Assembly: GCA_038757895.1 (NCBI GenBank)
Contig: JBCDGE010000012.1
Coordinates: 1-64,000 of the forward strand
From: Planctomycetota bacterium
GTDB taxonomy: Bacteria; Planctomycetota; UBA1135; GCA-002686595
Direction: 5' to 3'
DNA: 64,000 bases
Shown here: positions 33,042 to 43,349 of the stretch, piece by piece
Numbering within the stretch: position 1 is the stretch's first letter
Layout: every line of letters begins with the position of its first letter
The notes under the pieces: generated by a model
What the model was told of the DNA's origin: nothing
Databases searched by the model: none
The model's input: the letters and a program-made list of their open reading frames with translations, nothing else
Made by a program: the position numbers and the translations under genes

Positions 33042-34904
33042 GTGACCGACGCGCCCGACAACGCTCGACCGACTTGGAGGGTCGCCGCGCTCGCGGCGGC
33101 CCTCTTCGTCGTTTCGCTTGCGCTGCGCTTCGTCGGGGTCGACCAGGGGCTGCCCCACCGCGGCGAGCCGGACACGTACATCGTCCAGCAGGCGGAAGCG
33201 CTCGTCCTCGACGGACTGACCGACCGCTACCGCGCCGGGTGGAAGTACCCCCACCTCGTCGCGACCGTCGTCGCGGCCGTGCCGGCGGAGGACATCGTTC
33301 GCCCGCCCGACGGCGCTTCTCTGGAGGAGCACGAGCGCGCCGCGACGGCGCTGCACCTTCGGACCCGAAAGGTCGCCGCGGTCCTGTCGGCGCTCGCGGC
33401 GCCGGCGACGTTCCTGATCGCGCTCCGCTTCCTGCCGCTCGCGTGGGCGGCGATGGCCGGGCTGCTGGTCGCTGCGAGCCTCCTCCACGTGTGCTTCAGC
33501 GTGCAGGCGCGGCCGCACGGGCCGGTGTCCGCGTTCGCCGCGCTGGCGCTCCTCGCGTCGCTGCGCTGGGCGGAGCGGCCGACGCTGCTGCGCGCGCTCG
33601 CTCTGGCGGCCGCGTCGGCGTGCGCGGTCGGGTCGCTGCACACGGGCTTCGCGGTGCTCGCACCGATCGCGGTCGCGACGATCGCGGCGCTGCGGAAGAC
33701 CGGCGTCCAGCGCGCGCACGTCGTGGCGGGCCTGCTCCTTGTCGGTGCGCTCGTGGCCGCGAGCACGGCGTGGTTCTACGTGCGCGCCGAGGACGGGTTC
33801 GGCAAGGACCCGACGAAGACGGCCGCCGCCCAGTCGCAGAGGCGCGGCGGGCTCGGATCGGACGAGCTCAACGAGGCCGCGGGCACGGGCCGGAACGTCG
33901 ATACGGAGTACGAGGGTCGCCGCGTCATCCAGTTCAGCGGCCACGTGGTCGCGCTCGACCTGTTCGACGGTGGCGGCTTCGGCGTCGCGTGGCGGACGCT
34001 GAGGACCTACGACCCGCTGATCCTCGCGTTCGCGCTCCTGGGCCTCGCGGCCGCTCTCGCGCGAGCGAGGCCAGGACTGAGCTTCAGCGCGACGTGGATC
34101 GTGCTCGGATTCGGGGTGCCGACGCTGCTGCTCTACGGGCTCTACGCCCGCAGCACGGACCGGTTCCTCCTGATCCTGGTGCCGATGGCGGCACTCGCCG
34201 CGGCGTACGGACTGCGCGTCGTCGCAGCGCGCGTCCCGCGCGTGGGCGGCGTCGTCGCGGGCGTCGCGATCCTCGCCATCACGGTCGCCGCGGCCAACGC
34301 CGCGCGCCTCCGCACGCTGCCGGACACGACGCAGCAGGCCGCTCGCTGGCTGCAGACGAACGTCGACCCGGAGACGTCGGTCCACCTGGCGAACCTGCGC
34401 TCGATCCCCCTCTTCATGCGGCCCAGTGACCTACGCGCGGACATGACGTGGGCGAACGGTCCGTGGGAGTCGTACCAGTGGGCGCTCCTGCGCCCGCGCG
34501 GCAAGTCCGTGCGCGGCGAGCGCGACGTCCCCACCGAGCCGACCCTGGAGGGCCCGCGTCGCCTCGGCCGCAACCTGGTCTACCCGACGACGGCCGAGCA
34601 GTACCGCATGGTCCTGAGCGACCGCCCGAGCGAGGTCGCGACCGAGATCCTCGACGGCGCAGCGCCCGACCGCGCGATCCTCGCCGTGCACCCCACCGTC
34701 CACGCGGGCCCGGTCGACCACTGGGCGCTCGCGAAGGCCTGGCGCACGCCGCTGCAACAGGAGCCGTGGCGCCAGGTCCACCGGATCGAGAACGGCCTCG
34801 CGGACGACGAGCCCGCGATGGAATACCGCCTCGACTTCTGGAAGGTGCTGCGCGCGCGCGCGTACGGATCGACGCTGGAGATCTACGCGGCGGCTACGCC
34901 CTAG
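33042..34904 (+). CDS. GT39/GT83-like (ArnT/PMT-like) membrane glycosyltransferase
   Basis: 620 aa, multiple N-terminal TM helices with a conserved acidic loop (RGEPDTYIVQQAE). Large C-terminal periplasmic domain. Confidence 0.65.
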   Translation: MTDAPDNARPTWRVAALAAALFVVSLALRFVGVDQGLPHRGEPDTYIVQQAEALVLDGLTDRYRAGWKYPHLVATVVAAVPAEDIVRPPDGASLEEHERAATALHLRTRKVAAVLSALAAPATFLIALRFLPLAWAAMAGLLVAASLLHVCFSVQARPHGPVSAFAALALLASLRWAERPTLLRALALAAASACAVGSLHTGFAVLAPIAVATIAALRKTGVQRAHVVAGLLLVGALVAASTAWFYVRAEDGFGKDPTKTAAAQSQRRGGLGSDELNEAAGTGRNVDTEYEGRRVIQFSGHVVALDLFDGGGFGVAWRTLRTYDPLILAFALLGLAAALARARPGLSFSATWIVLGFGVPTLLLYGLYARSTDRFLLILVPMAALAAAYGLRVVAARVPRVGGVVAGVAILAITVAAANAARLRTLPDTTQQAARWLQTNVDPETSVHLANLRSIPLFMRPSDLRADMTWANGPWESYQWALLRPRGKSVRGERDVPTEPTLEGPRRLGRNLVYPTTAEQYRMVLSDRPSEVATEILDGAAPDRAILAVHPTVHAGPVDHWALAKAWRTPLQQEPWRQVHRIENGLADDEPAMEYRLDFWKVLRARAYGSTLEIYAAATP

Positions 34905-35063
34905 GCTGGCGCCAATACTGATAGCCACCCCCTTGAGTCTCGACGCTCTTCGAGAACCTAAGAACAGAGAGTCGGTGTCCCCCGTCTGGCAGAGCGTGAT
35001 CTGCTAGATTCTAATGAGTAGGAGACCGTAGCGGCCAGACGCGTAGGCCACTCAAGTCATGCA

Positions 35064-35720
35064 CTAGCGACTCCGCCCATCAGCCATTTGCAGTCCATGC
35101 TGAGCAAGCTCGGTCAATATTTGCTCCAAGCGCGCCTCTTTAATTCCAGGCGTCTCCAGCAGCTGGTCAGCTGTCATACTGCACAGCTGCTCAATACTCC
35201 CGATGCCGGAGTCACGAAGGCATCGATAGACACTCTGATCGAACTCGATCTGCAAACCTGTTCGCGCGACGACCCATCGCTCGGCCCCTGTACTCAACCC
35301 AACAGTTGCTTCATGGATCATCGAGACGATCCGATCGAGCCGTTCCTTCACCGCCTGCTGGGCTTCCTCTCGACCGAACAGGTAAAGATGACTCGCAATC
35401 GCAGCCTCCCTGATCAGGTACGGCGAAACGGACCAAGCTCCTCCTATATCGGCAAGGCAGCGAAGGGCCTGAAATCGACGATCTGGCTGCTCCGAGAGGT
35501 ACAAGACAGCGCGCTTCATCTGCAAGTGCAGACTATCTACTTCTCTTTCTTCGTCGCTGCAGTGGAACCACTCCTCGTACGCACTAATAGTCTGCAGTAG
35601 CGCCTCTCGCACCTCAGAGGAGTCAATCAAAGGACGTGACCAATCCACCCCGATTTCCCTGGCCACGCTATGCTGGCTCCGCCGTCTCGCGAGCAGCGAA
35701 CTCTCTGTCCATCTGATCAA
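35064..35720 (-). CDS. Protein with C-terminal RNA-polymerase alpha-subunit CTD-like helix-hairpin-helix domain (island gene D)
   Basis: C-terminus VYRCLRDSGIGSIEQLCSMTADQLLETPGIKEARLEQILTELAQHGLQM aligns with the RpoA alpha-CTD pattern (SVRSANCLK...I..LV.....ELL...N.GKKSL.EIK..L...GL.L). About 150-aa N-terminal domain unassigned. Low-GC island. Start uncertain (53-nt overlap with the upstream gene if ATG 35720). Confidence 0.5.
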   Translation of the reverse strand: MIRWTESSLLARRRSQHSVAREIGVDWSRPLIDSSEVREALLQTISAYEEWFHCSDEEREVDSLHLQMKRAVLYLSEQPDRRFQALRCLADIGGAWSVSPYLIREAAIASHLYLFGREEAQQAVKERLDRIVSMIHEATVGLSTGAERWVVARTGLQIEFDQSVYRCLRDSGIGSIEQLCSMTADQLLETPGIKEARLEQILTELAQHGLQMADGRSR

Positions 35721-36216
35721 GAATCATACCAACCGGACGATTTCGCTTCCTGAACATTTGTTCCTCTGGAACTCCAAGCGCCGATAGCCGCTGCTGATAC
35801 TCATCTACGAGAAACTCACTCAGTACGCCAACCCGGGCTGAGTCGTACCCAGCCCGGACCGCTTCTGCAGCGAAGTCTAGGCCAGCAGGCACACCGGCAC
35901 GAAACATGCTGTCGACTCGCGACGGCACTTCAAGATCGATAAGTATGTAGGTAAACCGATCGCGCATCACCTCGAAAGCTTCATGGGCCTCGGCGTGAGA
36001 TCGGGCTAGCACGACTACGAATCTCTCACCAAGATCTCTGACACGATCAATCGTGGTCGAATCATCCTCCAAATGCAGCACGACGGCGCGATCGTCGCAG
36101 CGGTTGACACGCCGCAAGGCTACACTATAGGCGTGGCCCGCACCCTCAGCATCATCAATGGGGGGCAAACGCCGTCTCCCCAGCGCTGATCTCAGCCACT
36201 TGACTGCTCGCTTCAT
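35668..36216 (-). CDS. Stand-alone response-regulator receiver (REC) domain protein (island gene C)
   Basis: VVLHLEDD (acidic pair), FTYILIDLEVPS (phospho-acceptor Asp context) and VGVLSEF (conserved Ser/Thr) in REC-like spacing. No output domain. 182 aa. Confidence 0.5.
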   Translation of the reverse strand: MKRAVKWLRSALGRRRLPPIDDAEGAGHAYSVALRRVNRCDDRAVVLHLEDDSTTIDRVRDLGERFVVVLARSHAEAHEAFEVMRDRFTYILIDLEVPSRVDSMFRAGVPAGLDFAAEAVRAGYDSARVGVLSEFLVDEYQQRLSALGVPEEQMFRKRNRPVGMILDQMDREFAARETAEPA

Positions 36217-36318
36217 TGCAAACTACCCCCCATCAGCGAGCCACTGATGGAATCCGGCTCCAACTGGAGTTGGAAGACTAGCGCGCTGCAATCCGCTCGC
36301 GCAATTGACGTCGATGCC

Positions 36319-37218
36319 TCAGCCATGAAACGACGGTGCAGCAGGAAGCCGCATCTCGACTTTGAATCTTCTTGGATTACCTGAAGTGATAAGTGGGTCG
36401 CCTGTCAGTGTCAGGCGCCCACCTTGCGACTCCACAGCCGATCGGGCGAGACTAAGCCCAAGTCCAGAGCCCTGTTTCGGCCGCTCACGGCGAGCTTCCT
36501 CTCCGCGCACACCGGGAGCGGCTAGATAGTCTAGCGAAAGCTCTTCCCGAAGCAAAGGTACGCCAAATGAAGAGATCGAAAGAACGACCTCGCGCGGCAT
36601 GGACAGATTCCTGCCAACAAGCTCGATGTATCTGCCGCTTCCTCTAAAGGAATATTTCACGGCGTTATGCACCAAATTATAGACCGCCACCCTAATTGGC
36701 TCAGCGTACCCAAGAACCCATCCTCGGCCATGAAACTGCGACACGAAGCGAATGCCCGCACTCGCAGCATCCTCGCCAAACACCTCTGACGCTGCCTGTA
36801 CCTGCTCGTAGAGATCGAAGCGCTCCTTTCGCCCAGCGTCCGCCCAGTACCCGGAGTCTAGTGCGGTGATCGCATTCAGGCAGGACAGTTGCATCCGGTC
36901 GATTCTCCCGGCGAGCCGCATACACAACGCCTTGGACGAAGACGATTCGTCAACTTCAACCAGTCCTTTGACGGCGCTGTATAGACCAGTCGCAGGGGTG
37001 ACGCGTGTCTCAGACGCTTGCGCCTCCACGTAGGCAGGACTCGCTAGGATCCCCGAGAGAAGAGCGTGGTAGAGGGCGCTCACATCGTGCAATGCAGCGA
37101 TCGCAATCCGACTCGATTCCTCCATTAGCAATGCGTTGGGCTGGGCATAGACAGTATTCGCGTTACTCATCGGGAAGCATGAAGTCGCGAATGAGGTTCG
37201 AGTCGAGCTCCGCTTCAC
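36319..37218 (-). CDS. Soluble histidine-kinase-like protein (DHp + HATPase_c; no sensor or TM domain) (island gene B)
   Basis: Candidate H-box IAIAALHDVSALYH. N-box VYNLVHNAVKYS. G2-box GSGLGLSLARSAVESQGG. Probable start is ATG ending 37170, giving an 8-nt overlap (ATGAGTAA) with the upstream gene stop. Confidence 0.55.
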   Translation of the reverse strand: MKRSSTRTSFATSCFPMSNANTVYAQPNALLMEESSRIAIAALHDVSALYHALLSGILASPAYVEAQASETRVTPATGLYSAVKGLVEVDESSSSKALCMRLAGRIDRMQLSCLNAITALDSGYWADAGRKERFDLYEQVQAASEVFGEDAASAGIRFVSQFHGRGWVLGYAEPIRVAVYNLVHNAVKYSFRGSGRYIELVGRNLSMPREVVLSISSFGVPLLREELSLDYLAAPGVRGEEARRERPKQGSGLGLSLARSAVESQGGRLTLTGDPLITSGNPRRFKVEMRLPAAPSFHG

Positions 37219-38947
37219 GGAGCCAAGTCAGCGTGTCGCTATGCAAGACGTCTACTGTAGGCGCACCACACATTCTCGCAGCCGAAAGTGCAGCGATGCC
37301 TCTCGCGGCGATCATTGAAACGCTACGCCGCTCTTCATCTCGATTTGGCGTACCATCATCCGGCGTCGCCGCTACCGCGTTGTTTAGAATTACGGGGCTG
37401 CCCAAGATCGCGGCTGCGCGCGGTAGATCAATAGAGTCCGCGTACTCTCCGAGAAGCGAGTAGTACTCGGCGATAGTGATGTAGACTTCACGACGAGCGG
37501 CGCCGGGCGCCTCGATCTCCGACTCTAGCGACAGTATGGTTTGACACGTACGTTTGAGAAAGCGCTGGGCGCCGCGCAAGCCGCAGTCCTCTCTGAGGAA
37601 CCGCACTGTCGCAGCTGCATGAGCGATCTCCTTACCTCCAACCCACGTTTCTTTCCCATACTCGTCAATCCATAGACGGATCGCACGCAGTCGGATGTCT
37701 GCGAGATTATTCACAGCACGCAAGACTGAGAAACGCGAAGTAAATCGGTCCGGTTCGCCGGAATAGCACGAATGCGCCCGCTCCAGAAGATCGAAGCGAG
37801 TTAGTGCCTCGCCGCTTGTCGCACTGACTAGCCTAAGATCGCGAAAAGCCGAATCTTCGCGGAGGGCGTCTGTCGCCCACTCGCCGTGTTCCTCGGCAAG
37901 CGAGATATAGGCGATTGCACGAGCAGATTGACGCATTGATAACCCTGTCGCACCGCTGCTAGCCTGTAGGCTCGATTCGATTAAGCCGGTGAGGGCCAAA
38001 ACGCGTAGAGCATTGCGAACGCGCTCGTCCGCCCCACGAGCCGTTGCATTATTCAACGCTACGCAGACCAGAGATGCGAGCATCGCATCCGGCGGAGTTA
38101 TCTGCTGACATCGATCGGCAAACTCGTCCGTGAATTCGACGCAGCTCGACCCGGACCAAATCAGCTGTGGGTAGGTCAAGGCAAGTCTGTCTACCGACGC
38201 TTCAAAGGCTCCCCTCCCTTGCGGTTGAACAAAGAGAGAGTGGCAGGCGCCCTCAAGCCCACGCCATCCGAACTCTGCGCGCTTCGCCGACTGTGGCGAA
38301 AGCTCGGCAGACGCAATTAATGGGCGCAGCTGCGACAGAGGCGTATACTCGAGTGCTGACCCAGACGCGAGTGCGAGTACTGCAAGTTCGCGGCTGCTCG
38401 GATTCGAAGCGTAGATTACTGTTCGCCGGAAACCGACGACACCAAGTGCGACGATCGACGCAGCAACGACGATGCCAGCTCTGCGGTCCCGTCGTCTTCG
38501 AAATTCGACGCGACGTTGGCGGTCGGCGAGAGTGTGCATCTGGGTAACGAGGTCGTACCAGTTCGGCTCGTCTGGCTCAAGCTGTTGATACCTAGCACTG
38601 GTGCCGTCTGTGCCAGCTTCTGGTTTGCCGACTTCTTCGGTCGGTCGAGCGGCACGAACTCCATGCTCATCGCTCAGTCGTAGCGCGTCGCCCAGCGGGG
38701 CAAAGTTCCCGCTTGTTGCTGGCGGAACGGCTAGCAGAATCCTGTACACACGCGGGATGAGCAAGAACAGTAGGCCGAGAGCGGCAGCCGCCGTCATTAG
38801 CGACGTTGCCCCGAGACGCTTGGGCGCGGTCCGCCAGAGGTCTCGAACTTGAAGATAAGACGCAGGATCAAACAACCAACTCTCAAAGAGCAGGCCGATC
38901 GTACCGAGGATCAGAAGGGCTGCGCCGACCTTGCGGGTGCGGTCCAT
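37163..38947 (-). CDS. Large membrane protein of unknown function (3 predicted TM helices + about 380-aa soluble domain) (island gene A)
   Basis: Start placed at MDRTRKVGAALLILGTIGLLF (ATG ending 38947). No recognisable motif. Low-GC. The N-terminal 82 codons of ORF 37163..39193 are probably not translated. Confidence 0.45.
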   Translation of the reverse strand: MDRTRKVGAALLILGTIGLLFESWLFDPASYLQVRDLWRTAPKRLGATSLMTAAAALGLLFLLIPRVYRILLAVPPATSGNFAPLGDALRLSDEHGVRAARPTEEVGKPEAGTDGTSARYQQLEPDEPNWYDLVTQMHTLADRQRRVEFRRRRDRRAGIVVAASIVALGVVGFRRTVIYASNPSSRELAVLALASGSALEYTPLSQLRPLIASAELSPQSAKRAEFGWRGLEGACHSLFVQPQGRGAFEASVDRLALTYPQLIWSGSSCVEFTDEFADRCQQITPPDAMLASLVCVALNNATARGADERVRNALRVLALTGLIESSLQASSGATGLSMRQSARAIAYISLAEEHGEWATDALREDSAFRDLRLVSATSGEALTRFDLLERAHSCYSGEPDRFTSRFSVLRAVNNLADIRLRAIRLWIDEYGKETWVGGKEIAHAAATVRFLREDCGLRGAQRFLKRTCQTILSLESEIEAPGAARREVYITIAEYYSLLGEYADSIDLPRAAAILGSPVILNNAVAATPDDGTPNRDEERRSVSMIAARGIAALSAARMCGAPTVDVLHSDTLTWLREAELDSNLIRDFMLPDE

Positions 38948-39508
38948 ACGTTTGGCGTCTACTTGACGAGAGGCGTTGGCAGGTGCGACTCCGTCGAGCT
39001 CGAGATTCTTGGGGCAGGAACTATGCGACAATCCTGACGTCGTCGCCTTGCGGTGGCGCTCGTTTGATTCTTCAGCGCGACTGCGAGAACTGCAACCCGT
39101 CGCAGATGATCCTTGTGCCGGAGTTGCGCAAAAGGGGCCAAGCGATCGCGACCTGGGCGCCTTGACAACGTGACAGGGGAGCGCCGGACGCAAAACCGTC
39201 CCATATGCGGGACGGCCCGAACGGGACCTCGATGCCGTTTCGCTCGTGGTCGTCGCACTCGAACGAGTCTGGCTCGCTCCCGCGCGATGGCCAAGCAGTG
39301 AGGGCTCCGTGTACTACACCGTCGGCGGCGGAGAGATGTCGAGGCTGCTGGTCGACGGCTCGCGCGACGCAGCTGCTGCGATCAGCGCTCGGCGACACGC
39401 CAGAAGTCGAAGAGTCGCCCTCCGAACCGAGTCGACTGCAGCCGCGATCTGTGCGGTCGTTGCTCCAGGACGAAGCGTGTGTCCTGGCCCGAGTGAGTTG
39501 TGTGTCGA

Positions 39509-40900
39509 TCATCCGCGCGCCACCGAGATCGTCTTCGGTACCGTGAACTGGCGGTGCCCGTCCGGGCCGCCGTGGAAGCCGTAGCCCGACTGGCGCGCGC
39601 CCACCCACGGCGAGCCCGGCGCGCCGCCGAGGTAGCGGTTCACCCCCACCTGGCCCGCGCGGATGCGGGACGCCACGCGCTCGCCGCGGCGGCGGTCCGC
39701 GGTCCAGACGTTCGCGCCCAGGCCGTACACCGTGTCGTTCGCGAGGCGCACCGCCTCGTCCTCGTCGCCGCTGAAGCGCGTCACCGCGACCACGGGGCCG
39801 AACGTCTCGACGTGCGTGATGCGGTGGTCCTGCTCGACGCCGGTCAGCACCGTCGCCGGGTAGAACCAGCCGGGACCGTCGGGGGTGGCGCCGCCGACGC
39901 GCAGCTGCGCCCCGTCCGCGACCGCGTCCTCGACCTGCTCGGCGACCTTGGCGCGCTGGTCCTCGCTCACGAGCGGGCCCATCTTCACGCCCTTCTCGCG
40001 ACCGTCGCCGTGGGTCCACTCGCGCGCGAGTTCGACCACGCGCTCCTCGAACGCGTCCGCCACCTCGTCGGCCACGTAGACGCGCTCGATCGAGCAGCAG
40101 ACCTGGCCCGTGTTGCGGAGCGAGTGTTCGACCGCTGACTTCGCCGCTTCTTCGACGTCCGCGTCCGCGAACACGACCATCGGGTCCTTGCCGCCGAGCT
40201 CCAGCACGAGCCGCTTCAGCGTCCCGACCGCGGCGTGCATGATCTTCTGGCCCGTGTCGCGGCTGCCGACGAACCCGACCATGTCGACGTCTGCGTCCAC
40301 GAGCGCCGCGCCGGTCCGTCCGTCGCCCTGGACGAGCACGAGCACGTCCTCGGGCAGCACCTGCTGCAGCAGCTCTGCGATCCGCGCGCCGGCGAGCGGC
40401 GTGTGCTCGCTCGGCTTGAACACGACCGTGTTGCCGGCGACCAGCGCCGGGACCAGGATCGTCAGCGGCATCCCCACCGGGAAGTTCCACGGCGTGATCG
40501 CCGCCACGACGCCGTGCGGGTCGCGGACCGTGCGCACCGTCTGGCCCTCGATGTCGTAGGTGATCGGCGCCAGTGACTCGACGATCTCGGCGGTCTTCGG
40601 AGCCACACCGATGGCGTAACCCTTGACCTCGCCGACCGACGTCCTGAGCGTCTTCCCCATCTCGCGGGTCGCGAGCAGCCCGAGCGCGTCGGCGTCCCTG
40701 CCCAGCGCCTCCCCGAAGCGGTCGAGCGCCGCGGCACGCTCCTCGATGGGCGTGGCCGCCCAGCCGTCGGCGGCAGCGCGCGCCCGCGCGACGGCCTGCA
40801 CGACCTCGTCGGACGTGGCGCAGGGGATCTCGGCGATCAGCTCGCCGGTGGCGGGGTCGATGTCGCGGATCGTGCGCGCGTCGCTGGCAACGGAGGTCAT
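39509..40900 (-). CDS. NAD(P)-dependent aldehyde dehydrogenase
   Basis: ITPWNFP, FKPSEHTP, VLELGGKDP (catalytic Glu), GQVCCSIERV (catalytic Cys), GFFYP-like WFYPATVL. 463 aa. Confidence 0.85.
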   Translation of the reverse strand: MTSVASDARTIRDIDPATGELIAEIPCATSDEVVQAVARARAAADGWAATPIEERAAALDRFGEALGRDADALGLLATREMGKTLRTSVGEVKGYAIGVAPKTAEIVESLAPITYDIEGQTVRTVRDPHGVVAAITPWNFPVGMPLTILVPALVAGNTVVFKPSEHTPLAGARIAELLQQVLPEDVLVLVQGDGRTGAALVDADVDMVGFVGSRDTGQKIMHAAVGTLKRLVLELGGKDPMVVFADADVEEAAKSAVEHSLRNTGQVCCSIERVYVADEVADAFEERVVELAREWTHGDGREKGVKMGPLVSEDQRAKVAEQVEDAVADGAQLRVGGATPDGPGWFYPATVLTGVEQDHRITHVETFGPVVAVTRFSGDEDEAVRLANDTVYGLGANVWTADRRRGERVASRIRAGQVGVNRYLGGAPGSPWVGARQSGYGFHGGPDGHRQFTVPKTISVARG

Positions 40901-40973
40901 GGCGCTCGCATCCTAGTGCCCTGATCGCAGCTCGACCGCACAATGGGGCGCCGCCGCGCCGCCACGCCAAGCC

Positions 40974-43349
40974 TTGGAATCCACACCTCACTCCTGGACC
41001 CGCACGCGCGAGGTCTTCCTCGAGCTGGCCGACCTGGGCGCCGGGGCCCGGAGCGAGGCGCTCGATCGGCTCCGCGCGTCGGACCCCGCCCTGGCGCGCG
41101 AGGTCGCAGAGCTCCTCGACCACGACCTCGACGCGACCGAGCTGCCCGCGGAGTCGTCCAACGCGCGCTTCGGCCCCTACGTTGCCATCGAGCGCATCGG
41201 CGCCGGCGGCATGGGCGAGGTCTACCTCGCACGCCGCGACGACGGCGAGTTCGAGCGCGAGGTTGCGGTCAAGGTCCTGCGCGGCGGCGCCGCAGGACCG
41301 GACCTGACGGCCCGCTTCCAGCGCGAGCGACAGACCCTCGCCGCCCTGAGCCACGAGTCGATCGTGCGGCTGCTCGACGGCGGGACGACCGCGGACGGCC
41401 GCGCGTACTTCGTCATGGAGTACGTCGAGGGGCTCAACCTCGACCACCACGCGCGCGACCTCGGACGCCGCGAGCGCCTGGAGCTCTTCCTGCGCGTGCT
41501 CCACGCCGTCGCGCACGCCCACGGGCGAGGCGTCGTGCACCGAGATCTCAAGCCCTCGAACATCCTCGTCCGCGCCGACGGCGCGGTGCGGCTCGTCGAC
41601 TTCGGGATCGCGCGCCTCCTGGGGACGGACCCGGAGCTCGGACGGGGCCAGACGCTCACGCGGACGGGGCAGCGCGTGTTCACGCCCGAGTACGCGAGCC
41701 CCGAGCAGGTCGGCGGGGAGCGCACGTCCCCCGCAACGGACGTCTTCGCGCTCGGCGTGATCCTGTACGAGCTGCTGGCGGGCAGCTCGCCCTGGCCCTC
41801 GGGTGGGACCACGCACGACCTGGAGCGAGCGATCCTGGAGGCGAGCCCGCCGGCGCCCAGCCGCCGCGCGACCGGAACCCAGGCGCGCGCGCTCCGGGGC
41901 AACCTGGACACGATCGTCCTGAAGTGCCTGGAGCGCGATCCTGCGCGGCGTTACCCGGATGCCGCCGCGCTCGCGGCGGACATCGAGCGCGAGCTCAGCG
42001 GACGCACGATCGAGGCGCGCCGCGCCACCGCGCTCGAGCGCGGCCTTCGCTTCGTCCGCCGTCGGCCCTGGCACACGCTCGCGGCCGCCTCGTCCGTCGT
42101 GGCCATCGTGGCGGCGGGCCTCGTCCTCGTCTCCCGCGGCGAGGAGACGCGACGCCAGGGGGCACTGGCCGACCAGATGCCCGACCGGCTCGCGGCCGTC
42201 CACGGCCTGATCCAGGCGCGTGCGTTCGACCGCGCGGAGTCCCAGCTCGCGCGGGCGGCCGAGGACATCGCGTCCCTCTCGGACGCGGGTGCGCTCGACG
42301 CCCTCCGTCGCCTGCGCGTCATGGAGCTCGAGCTGGCGCAGGGTCGATCGGCGCGCGTCCTGGACGAGGTCGAAGCCGCGCGCTCCGTCGCCGCGTTCGA
42401 GTCTCCCGACCACGTGCACCTCGCGCTGGAGCTGCGCTTCTTCGAGGCCAACGCGCTCGCCGGCCTGGGTCGGATCCCGGAGGCGGAGCGGGTGGCCCGC
42501 GAGACCATGAAGGCCGCCGAGGGCGTCCTGCCGGCTTCCCACTCGATCCGGATCGACCTGGCGACGATCCTCGCCCGCGCGCACCTGGAGCGCGGCGAGC
42601 TCGACGCGGGTCACGAGCTGCTGGAGTCGGTCCGGCAGCCGGCCCTGGAGCGTGGGATCGAGAACGACCCGGTCGTCGCGCGGATCGACGGACTCCTCGG
42701 TCGCTGGCTCCGCGAGGTCGGCCGCCCGAAGGAGGCGCTCGAGCGCCTGGAGAGCGCTCGCTCGGCCCTGCGCTGGAGCTACGGCGACCGCCACCCCGAC
42801 GTCGCCGAGCTCACGATGGTCCTCGCTCGCATCCGCTTCGAGCAGGGAGATCTCGACCGCGCATGGGAGGAGATCCAGGCCGCGCGCGCCGCGTTCCGCG
42901 CGTTCAACAGCCCGATGATGCGGGCCTACCTCCTGGAGCTCGCGAGCCACGTCGCGTCCGCACGCGGAGACCTGGAAGGGAAGCTCGGCGCGCTGGAGGA
43001 GAACCTGGAGAACGTCGAGACCCACCTCTTCCCCGACTTCCGGCCGCAGTGGTGCGTCAGCCAGATGCACCGCGGCATCACGCTGGGCGAGATGGGCCGG
43101 CTCGACGAGTCGATCGAGGCGTTCGAGGCGGCGCTCGCTCCGGCACCGGGCAGCGACGTGCCGGCGGTCGCTCCGAAGGGACCCCAGGTCGAGGCCGAGA
43201 TCCGCGCGAGCTTCGCGGAGGTCCTTCGCGCAGCGGGGTTCCCGGACGAGGCGCGCGACGAGTTCGCGCACGCCGCGGACCTCTTCGAGGAGGCCCTCGG
43301 TGCGGACCATCCCGTGACGAAGAAGGCGCGCGCGCTCGGCGGCGGCTGA
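40974..43349 (+). CDS. Serine/threonine protein kinase with C-terminal TPR-repeat domain
   Basis: Hanks kinase motifs: GAGGMGEVY, VAVK, HRDLKPSNIL, DFGIAR, SPEQ. About 500-aa TPR-like helical C-terminus. 791 aa. Confidence 0.8.
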   Translation: MESTPHSWTRTREVFLELADLGAGARSEALDRLRASDPALAREVAELLDHDLDATELPAESSNARFGPYVAIERIGAGGMGEVYLARRDDGEFEREVAVKVLRGGAAGPDLTARFQRERQTLAALSHESIVRLLDGGTTADGRAYFVMEYVEGLNLDHHARDLGRRERLELFLRVLHAVAHAHGRGVVHRDLKPSNILVRADGAVRLVDFGIARLLGTDPELGRGQTLTRTGQRVFTPEYASPEQVGGERTSPATDVFALGVILYELLAGSSPWPSGGTTHDLERAILEASPPAPSRRATGTQARALRGNLDTIVLKCLERDPARRYPDAAALAADIERELSGRTIEARRATALERGLRFVRRRPWHTLAAASSVVAIVAAGLVLVSRGEETRRQGALADQMPDRLAAVHGLIQARAFDRAESQLARAAEDIASLSDAGALDALRRLRVMELELAQGRSARVLDEVEAARSVAAFESPDHVHLALELRFFEANALAGLGRIPEAERVARETMKAAEGVLPASHSIRIDLATILARAHLERGELDAGHELLESVRQPALERGIENDPVVARIDGLLGRWLREVGRPKEALERLESARSALRWSYGDRHPDVAELTMVLARIRFEQGDLDRAWEEIQAARAAFRAFNSPMMRAYLLELASHVASARGDLEGKLGALEENLENVETHLFPDFRPQWCVSQMHRGITLGEMGRLDESIEAFEAALAPAPGSDVPAVAPKGPQVEAEIRASFAEVLRAAGFPDEARDEFAHAADLFEEALGADHPVTKKARALGGG

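Follow-up and report, generated by a model that had tools for sequence, protein, structure and literature searches.

Four co-directional minus-strand genes occupied the whole gap between two host genes in the 64-kb window (the whole stretch of DNA that was analysed). [quoted passage not shown] The genes formed two tightly coupled pairs: the membrane and kinase-like genes overlapped by 8 nt, and the small acidic and alpha-CTD genes were separated by 1 nt. The features of the locus were as follows:

34905..39508, no strand assigned: low-GC insertion of 4.6 kb, spanning the entire gap between two host genes
37163..38947, minus strand: TM_594, an orphan membrane protein of 594 aa that has three hydrophobic segments
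36319..37170, minus strand: HK_283, a 283-aa soluble histidine-kinase-like protein with a CA/HATPase_c domain and a helical N-terminal part
35668..36216, minus strand: small acidic protein of 166–182 aa, soluble, translationally coupled to the alpha-CTD gene, candidate receiver-like
35064..35666, minus strand: alpha-CTD gene, encoding the 200-aa two-domain protein P0001, with the start (GTG) and coding status taken from the public gene call and GC phase
35262..35666, minus strand: orphan N-terminal domain, residues 1–135 of P0001, predicted to be all-helical and followed by a short beta-hairpin linker
35085..35255, minus strand: alpha-CTD-type (HhH)2 domain, residues 138–194 of P0001, about 57 aa

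Foreign insertion and gene coordinates

The 4.6-kb cassette is a recently acquired foreign insertion. Its GC content was 53–61%, compared with 70–83% in the adjacent flanks and 65–77% in the rest of the window, and positions 34,905–39,508 were the only low-GC stretch of the 64 kb. GC3 was 0.55–0.60 in the four cassette genes and 0.94–0.96 in three host genes. An independent Logan contig was identical over 34793–39781 and contained both junctions; therefore, a mis-join in the metagenome-assembled genome is unlikely. Three of the four cassette proteins were orphans, and the cassette was a singleton. The foreign, low-GC and largely orphan nature of the cassette had been overlooked in the preliminary description of this DNA.

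No relatives of the insertion were found in phage, plasmid, viral, or GTDB collections. Neither an integrase nor convincing flanking direct or inverted repeats were present at the insertion, and the 64-kb window contained no tRNAs and no host RpoA gene. No Rfam match was obtained, and promoter and terminator scans stayed at background level. The empty site was searched for with the flanking 620-aa host gene as query; GTDB yielded nothing, and metagenomes yielded only a 1.1-kb fragment that stopped at the end of the gene. The boundaries of the insertion were therefore defined by composition alone, because the empty site was not found.

The maximal open reading frame at 35064..35720 in the ORF list lies on the minus strand and encodes 218 aa from a TTG codon. 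Its translation contains the tail peptide VYRCLRDSGIGSIEQLCSMTADQLLETPGIKEARLEQILTELAQHGLQM, as quoted in the preliminary description. The first 17 codons of this frame were shared with the upstream ORF at 35668..36216. The GTG at 35666, which lies 1 nt past the TAG of the upstream ORF and 10 nt past a GGAG, is a likelier start than the TTG. The public gene call on the identical contig used the same GTG and gave the same 200-aa product, P0001, in which all residues of the alpha-CTD protein are numbered here. With this likelier start, the N-terminal part comprises about 135 aa rather than the 150 aa first proposed; the fusion of an alpha-CTD to an orphan domain held. GC1, GC2, and GC3 of the gene were 0.64, 0.43, and 0.60, and this GC1 > GC3 > GC2 phase pattern supported its coding status. 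The opposite-strand ORF at 35088..35600 gave no matches and was rejected as a shadow ORF. The whole protein is soluble and acidic, with a pI of 5.0 and no basic region.

The alpha-CTD-type tail and the orphan N-terminal domain

By sequence profile alone, membership of the tail in the RNA_pol_A_CTD family (PF03118) is borderline. With the whole ORF, HHH_5 (PF14520) was matched at its gathering score (27.0 bits, cut-off 27), and RNA_pol_A_CTD stayed under its cut-off (21.5 bits against 23.8). With the isolated 65-aa tail, both families scored above the cut-off (29.6 bits for HHH_5 and 24.6 bits for RNA_pol_A_CTD), and the PF03118 match spanned only model positions 24–66 of 67. The PF03118 check thus succeeded for the isolated tail and failed for the whole ORF. 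NCBIfam rpoA models matched residues 149–215 of the ORF only.

Comparisons with sequences and structures were clearer. A phmmer search against PDB sequences gave 26 matches, all of them RpoA alpha-CTDs, with that of Bacillus subtilis the best (E 2.8e-3). An exhaustive phmmer search against 1.84 billion cluster representatives gave 54 foreign matches with a best E of 2.6e-12; 53 of these fell on residues ~140–196 of P0001, the exception being the weak match P0049. When 10 of the library matches were scanned with Pfam, all carried PF03118, with 2–7 domains each. The modelled tail formed a compact four-helix (HhH)2 fold and superposed on solved alpha-CTD structures to ~1 Å. Its helices (residues 144–152, 158–162, 166–170, and 177–189) coincided exactly at their boundaries with those of E. 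coli alpha-CTD residues 264–309 when 120 was added, and the ungapped HMMER alignment gave the same register, in which subtracting 120 from the E. coli number gives the P0001 residue. Only ~20–34% identity was shared with any RpoA alpha-CTD. The core residues C269, L270, I275, L281, T285, P293, L300, and I303 (E. coli numbering) were kept, and L150, I155, L161, T165, L180, and I183 of P0001 agreed with the family consensus. The tail was thereby confirmed as a true (HhH)2 domain of the alpha-CTD type that is not part of RpoA, and the resemblance of the last ~55 residues to the RpoA alpha-CTD, first noticed by eye, was borne out by the PDB and library matches and by the modelled fold, including the superposition proposed as a check.

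Compared with the RpoA alpha-CTD (PF03118), the tail has the same four-helix double helix-hairpin-helix fold and conserved core, but P0001 has an orphan domain in place of the alpha N-terminal dimerisation domain. The ORF gave no Pfam match to the alpha-NTD, so that the alpha N-terminal dimerisation and assembly domain was absent. An RpoA paralogue was ruled out by this absence together with the orphan residues 1–135.

The N-terminal domain had no relative among the 1.84 billion cluster representatives. None of the 54 library matches had its best-scoring stretch in residues 1–92, and one weak match (P0049) fell on residues 93–123. No Pfam, NCBIfam, PHROG, or PADLOC family was matched at a meaningful E-value, and the structural model of this domain had low confidence (pLDDT 40–65). 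Full-length relatives extending beyond the tail were not found by word-index search, exhaustive HMMER search, searches of GTDB genomes and viral contigs, or tblastn against phages and plasmids.

The DNA-binding patch of the alpha-CTD is the 265 determinant, consisting of R265, N268, C269, N294, G296, K298, and S299, and the 261 and 287 patches are protein-contact patches (PMC1874639, PMC9178005). The 265 determinant was mapped onto P0001 by the ungapped alignment, with the register confirmed by the helices of the structural model:

R265: S145
N268: R148
C269: C149 (kept)
N294: G174
G296: K176
K298: A178
S299: R179

A gapped hmmalign register with a two-residue deletion at R265–S266 was dropped, since the ungapped register fits the helix boundaries of the model; neither register places an Arg at the 265 position. 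The preliminary description had proposed looking for conserved equivalents of the 265 determinant, and only C269 was kept among the seven, with the determinant lost at the other 6/7 positions of an acidic tail. Of the protein-contact residues of E. coli, E261 was kept in the 261 patch (D258 was replaced by L and D259 by Q), and T285 was kept in the 287 patch (E286 was replaced by A, V287 by D, and E288 by Q).

The core of the tail (residues 138–194) contains 4 K+R and 9 D+E and has a pI of 4.4; the equivalent E. coli segment has a pI of 8.1. Among 32 full-length related repeats, only one was equally poor in K+R or equally negative. Some of these replacements are common among non-RpoA repeats: of 158 such repeats, 75 have Gly at position 294 and 22 have Ala at position 298. 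Arg or Lys is usually retained at position 265 where this position is aligned. With the 265 determinant lost and the core acidic, UP-element-type DNA binding by the tail is unlikely. The idea that the protein serves as a DNA-binding output of the cassette of that type was accordingly weakened.

Neighbouring proteins and relatives

HK_283 clearly has an ATPase of the histidine-kinase type. HATPase_c (PF02518) was matched at 36.4 bits against a cut-off of 26.4, sensor-kinase models of NCBIfam were matched, and only histidine kinases were matched in the PDB, at E ~1e-4. Its N box ('NLVHNAVKYS') and its G2 box ('GSGLGL') aligned. The G1-box 'DxGxG' aligned to 'SSFGVP' ('ISSFGVP' against 'ISDQGLG'), in which the Asp is replaced by Ser. 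No HisKA-family (H-box) profile matched the first 131 residues, even with the threshold relaxed to E ≤ 10. A stretch 'AALHDVSAL' was picked out by eye as a candidate site of the phospho-accepting His. The cassette had been described as carrying a kinase; its HATPase_c domain was found, but the H-box profile and the G1 Asp were not. The ATPase core also gave a weak PADLOC match to the candidate system PDC-M43B (E 1.5e-7), and the other three cassette proteins matched no PADLOC-DB 2.0 or PHROG model meaningfully.

TM_594 had Kyte–Doolittle peaks at residues 7–27, 45–75, and 155–178. No family or PDB match was obtained in Pfam, PADLOC, NCBIfam, PHROG, and PDB searches, and its sole match was itself, named 'MAG: hypothetical protein AAGI22_05750 [Planctomycetota bacterium]' at NCBI; going by this name, the host is a Planctomycetota MAG.

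The small acidic protein, previously called a receiver, had no Pfam, NCBIfam, or PDB sequence match and was an orphan in the library search. It was compared by hhalign with six canonical receivers, each confirmed as PF00072. 'LHLEDD' aligned to the acidic DD pair and 'ILIDLEVPS' to the phospho-Asp strand. The alignment was weak (P 0.026, probability 1.9%), and its score was reached by 1 of 300 shuffles. The structural model had a pLDDT of 48 with beta-alpha alternation, and Foldseek on this single-sequence model returned generic alpha/beta proteins. The placement of the acidic motifs is thus suggestive of a receiver, although database matches were absent and the model was of low confidence. 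Two-component systems with a single-domain response regulator and a separate partner share with the cassette the gene order and the coupled last pair; they differ in that the phospho-accepting His region and the receiver fold were not detected in the cassette and the G1 Asp is replaced by Ser.

Stand-alone alpha-CTD-domain proteins are an already annotated, uncharacterised class on plasmids and phages, to which P0001 is a new, divergent addition. A literature search turned up nothing on how non-RpoA alpha-CTD proteins function. One member, WP_024542472.1, is a 234-aa protein of the Ralstonia mannitolilytica plasmid pRMAN01, and its class is named 'DNA-directed RNA polymerase subunit alpha C-terminal domain-containing protein' at NCBI. 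Like P0001, it consists of a unique N-terminal region (~160 aa) and one C-terminal PF03118 domain in a mobile-element context, and the two tails are 33% identical (pairwise E 1e-8). However, its N-terminal domain is unrelated to that of P0001, its tail matches PF03118 strongly (58.8 bits), and its gene adjoins DNA-modification genes rather than a kinase.

The metagenomic relatives P0002–P0055 were nearest to the P0001 tail by sequence, with 27–41% identity and E down to 2.6e-12. They share with P0001 the Gly at the N294 position and often the Ala at the K298 position. They contain 2–8 repeats, in contrast to the single copy in P0001, and most of the repeats are net positive. Many lie behind signal-peptide-like N-termini, and some are fused to sigma-70 region 4. 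One alpha-CTD-like relative is a phage protein encoded directly after the terminase gene, and another adjoins a 911-aa sigma-r4/alpha-CTD fusion. In none of four genomic contexts of alpha-CTD-like relatives was a kinase or receiver present.

Possible role of P0001 in the cassette

The function of P0001 can only be guessed. The best guess, held tentatively and at somewhat less than even chances, is that P0001 serves a foreign signalling cassette as its output or adaptor, with a tail that docks on a protein of the transcription apparatus and not on DNA. TM_594 would sense a signal, and the kinase-like HK_283 would signal to the small, possibly receiver-like protein. This protein would act by way of the orphan N-terminal domain of P0001, with which it is co-translated, and the alpha-CTD-like tail would dock on the transcription apparatus or on a regulator. 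At most, the tail would be a weak, non-specific DNA tether rather than a reader of UP elements. Since the tail has lost R265, G296, K298, and S299 and is net negative, a protein–protein docking module is its most likely nature. Protein docking is the second documented role of the genuine alpha-CTD. The operon layout, the coupling, the kinase-like neighbour, the weak receiver signal, and the foreign origin were counted for the adaptor reading, as was the recurrence of alpha-CTD-like domains in fusions with sigma-70 region 4 and on mobile elements. The singleton status of the cassette, its three orphans out of four proteins, the lack of a kinase or receiver beside any examined relative, the tentative nature of the receiver assignment, and the low-confidence model of the N-terminal domain were counted against it. 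Phosphotransfer may not occur, since HK_283 has no H-box profile match and no G1 Asp.

Other explanations were weighed against this adaptor reading. It is unlikely, though the least so among them, that the tail binds DNA, whether by generic contacts to the backbone or with a novel specificity, as an island transcription factor or nucleoid-associated protein. The best Pfam match of the tail is HHH_5, a generic DNA-binding HhH family; the second hairpin 'LLETPGIKEARLEQIL' is near the canonical HhH pattern; R148, R151, K176, and R179 lie close to the equivalent of the DNA face; and DNA is bound by the B. subtilis alpha-CTD despite its own mild acidity. However, Ser replaces the key minor-groove residue R265 and Lys the hairpin Gly G296, K298 and S299 are not kept either, and the core, with its pI of 4.4 and 4 K+R, is at the low extreme of the 32 related repeats in a protein of pI 5.0. 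Somewhat less probable is a form of the decoy idea raised in the preliminary description, in which the tail would mimic the host alpha-CTD and titrate an alpha-CTD-binding partner such as an activator, an Spx-like factor, NusA AR2, or sigma region 4. By analogy, such a decoy may be controlled by the kinase and small-protein pair; sigma mimicry in PhyR–NepR partner switching offers the parallel. A fold matching the alpha-CTD to ~1 Å, kept with the DNA-binding residues lost, is to be expected of a mimic that only binds proteins, and mobile elements do carry alpha-CTD-like proteins. The 261 and 287 contact patches, on the other hand, are mostly unlike those of E. coli, and the identity to any RpoA alpha-CTD is low (~20–34%). 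The more elaborate form of this idea is a signal-controlled mimic, in which a foreign kinase and receiver-like pair would switch a DNA-binding-stripped alpha-CTD look-alike so that it captures or releases a host factor whose usual docking site is the alpha-CTD of the polymerase; this is speculative and the least probable of the readings given here.

The cassette might also be mobile-element cargo without two-component signalling, for instance in defence or anti-defence, with a GHKL-type ATPase that is not a kinase and an HhH protein that handles nucleic acid. This is about as improbable as the simple decoy. In its favour, the island consists of orphan genes of foreign origin, the ATPase core weakly matches PDC-M43B, the G1-box Asp and an H-box profile match are missing from HK_283, and alpha-CTD-like proteins are also encoded by a phage and, next to DNA-modification genes, by a plasmid. 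Against it, neither PADLOC nor PHROG has a model that fits any of the other three proteins, and the best NCBIfam and PDB matches of the ATPase are all sensor histidine kinases and reach upstream of the CA domain; moreover, no integrase, tRNA, or flanking repeat accompanies the island, and relatives are absent from the phage and plasmid collections. That the cassette is a recently landed fragment of decaying foreign genes, with no current function in the host, is very unlikely. A singleton without homologues, with degenerate catalytic and binding motifs and a composition not ameliorated towards the host, would be consistent with decay, but all four reading frames are intact, compact, and start–stop coupled, the cassette genes show a coding GC-phase pattern, and the hydrophobic core positions of the alpha-CTD are kept.

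The alpha-CTD is the main docking point for the activators and UP elements that recruit RNA polymerase. Plasmids, phages, and metagenomes contain free-standing copies of it, joined to a wide range of partners, sigma region 4 among them. As a singleton in an uncultured organism, the present locus is a weak entry point for testing the role of the class, and the plasmid and phage examples are better ones. The locus is nevertheless a clear case in which the alpha-CTD fold is kept and the DNA-binding residues are lost within a foreign signalling-type cassette. A signal-controlled mimic, if true, would be the alpha-subunit counterpart, on mobile DNA, of the sigma-mimicry switch of PhyR/NepR. If the class modulates host transcription, as adaptor or decoy, it would represent a new layer of control by mobile elements.

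Foreign island and adjoining host DNA

Three features define the island and its borders:
34905-39508, foreign insertion of four genes (4.6 kb), recognized by low GC
33042-34904 (+), host gene for a 620-aa hydrophobic protein, abutting the left end of the island
39509-40900, genuine aldehyde dehydrogenase gene (PF00171, 479.6 bits)

The stretch 34905-39508 is a foreign insertion. Its GC content was 53-61%, and it was the sole low-GC stretch within the 64-kb window. In its genes GC3 was 0.55-0.60, whereas host genes had 0.94-0.96. Neither an integrase nor a tRNA was found in the island, and no repeats flank it. Searches of protein collections totalling about 15 billion sequences returned no relative for three of the four island proteins.

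The 620-aa host protein had no Pfam match, and only one relative was detected in the scanned collections: a fragment with 92% identity, carried by a metagenome contig of 1.1 kb. On the other side, one further reading frame was considered:
39072-43310 (-), 1412-aa ORF in very GC-rich DNA

This ORF overlaps the aldehyde dehydrogenase gene in a different frame. It is almost certainly spurious. In the end fragment of the short Logan contig, an independent assembly identical to the window over 34793-39781, the gene caller took the frame of the 1412-aa ORF.

Kinase-like protein and membrane-type orphan

Two island genes lie next to each other:
36319-37170 (-), histidine-kinase-like protein
37163-38947 (-), 594-aa orphan protein

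The histidine-kinase-like protein retained the N and G2 boxes. At the G1 motif (DxGxG) it reads SSFGVP, with Ser replacing the adenine-contacting Asp. HisKA/H-box profiles did not match its N-terminal half. The protein could be a pseudokinase, or else bind ATP in an atypical way.

The 594-aa orphan had three hydrophobic segments (residues 7-27, 45-75 and 155-178), followed by a C-terminal soluble region of about 415 residues without a family match. The stop of its gene and the start of the kinase-like gene overlap by 8 nt; therefore, the orphan may be the sensor partner of the kinase-like protein.

Alpha-CTD-like relatives on other replicons

Many of the nearest metagenomic relatives of the P0001 tail (P0002, P0005, P0009, P0012, P0024, P0037 and others) carried 3-8 alpha-CTD-like repeats in long tandem arrays. 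The N-termini preceding these arrays were hydrophobic and signal-peptide-like, which suggests that the array proteins are exported. The alpha-CTD domain is normally regarded as cytoplasmic and DNA- or polymerase-associated.

Three loci carried other arrangements:
L009:6001-6486 (metagenome contig ERZ27269073 k141_755784), 161-aa protein
L008:163-3949 (JGI 3300027914 Ga0268387_1022619), sigma-70 region 4/alpha-CTD-like locus
L002:4494-5198 (NZ_CP010801.1 150179-150883), 234-aa protein of Ralstonia mannitolilytica plasmid pRMAN01

The 161-aa protein consists of two alpha-CTD-like domains. Its contig is phage-like, and the gene sits between a large terminase gene and a portal-type (Head-tail_con) gene region. 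In the metagenomic relatives P0011, P0018 and P0025, sigma-70 region 4 was fused with several alpha-CTD-like domains; P0025 additionally had a HARE-HTH domain. At L008, a 337-aa alpha-CTD-like protein has such a fusion, of 911 aa, as its neighbour, and a PAPS-reductase-domain protein comes next. It is unusual for a single chain to combine two of the modules through which RNA polymerase contacts promoters.

In the pRMAN01 protein the N-terminal region is unique, and a single alpha-CTD domain, a strong match (PF03118, 58.8 bits), lies at the C-terminus. Directly downstream are genes for a DNA cytosine methyltransferase, a nucleoside 2-deoxyribosyltransferase, a phage Gp37/Gp68 protein and a PAPS-reductase-family protein. 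This plasmid protein would be a better-supported way into the stand-alone alpha-CTD class.
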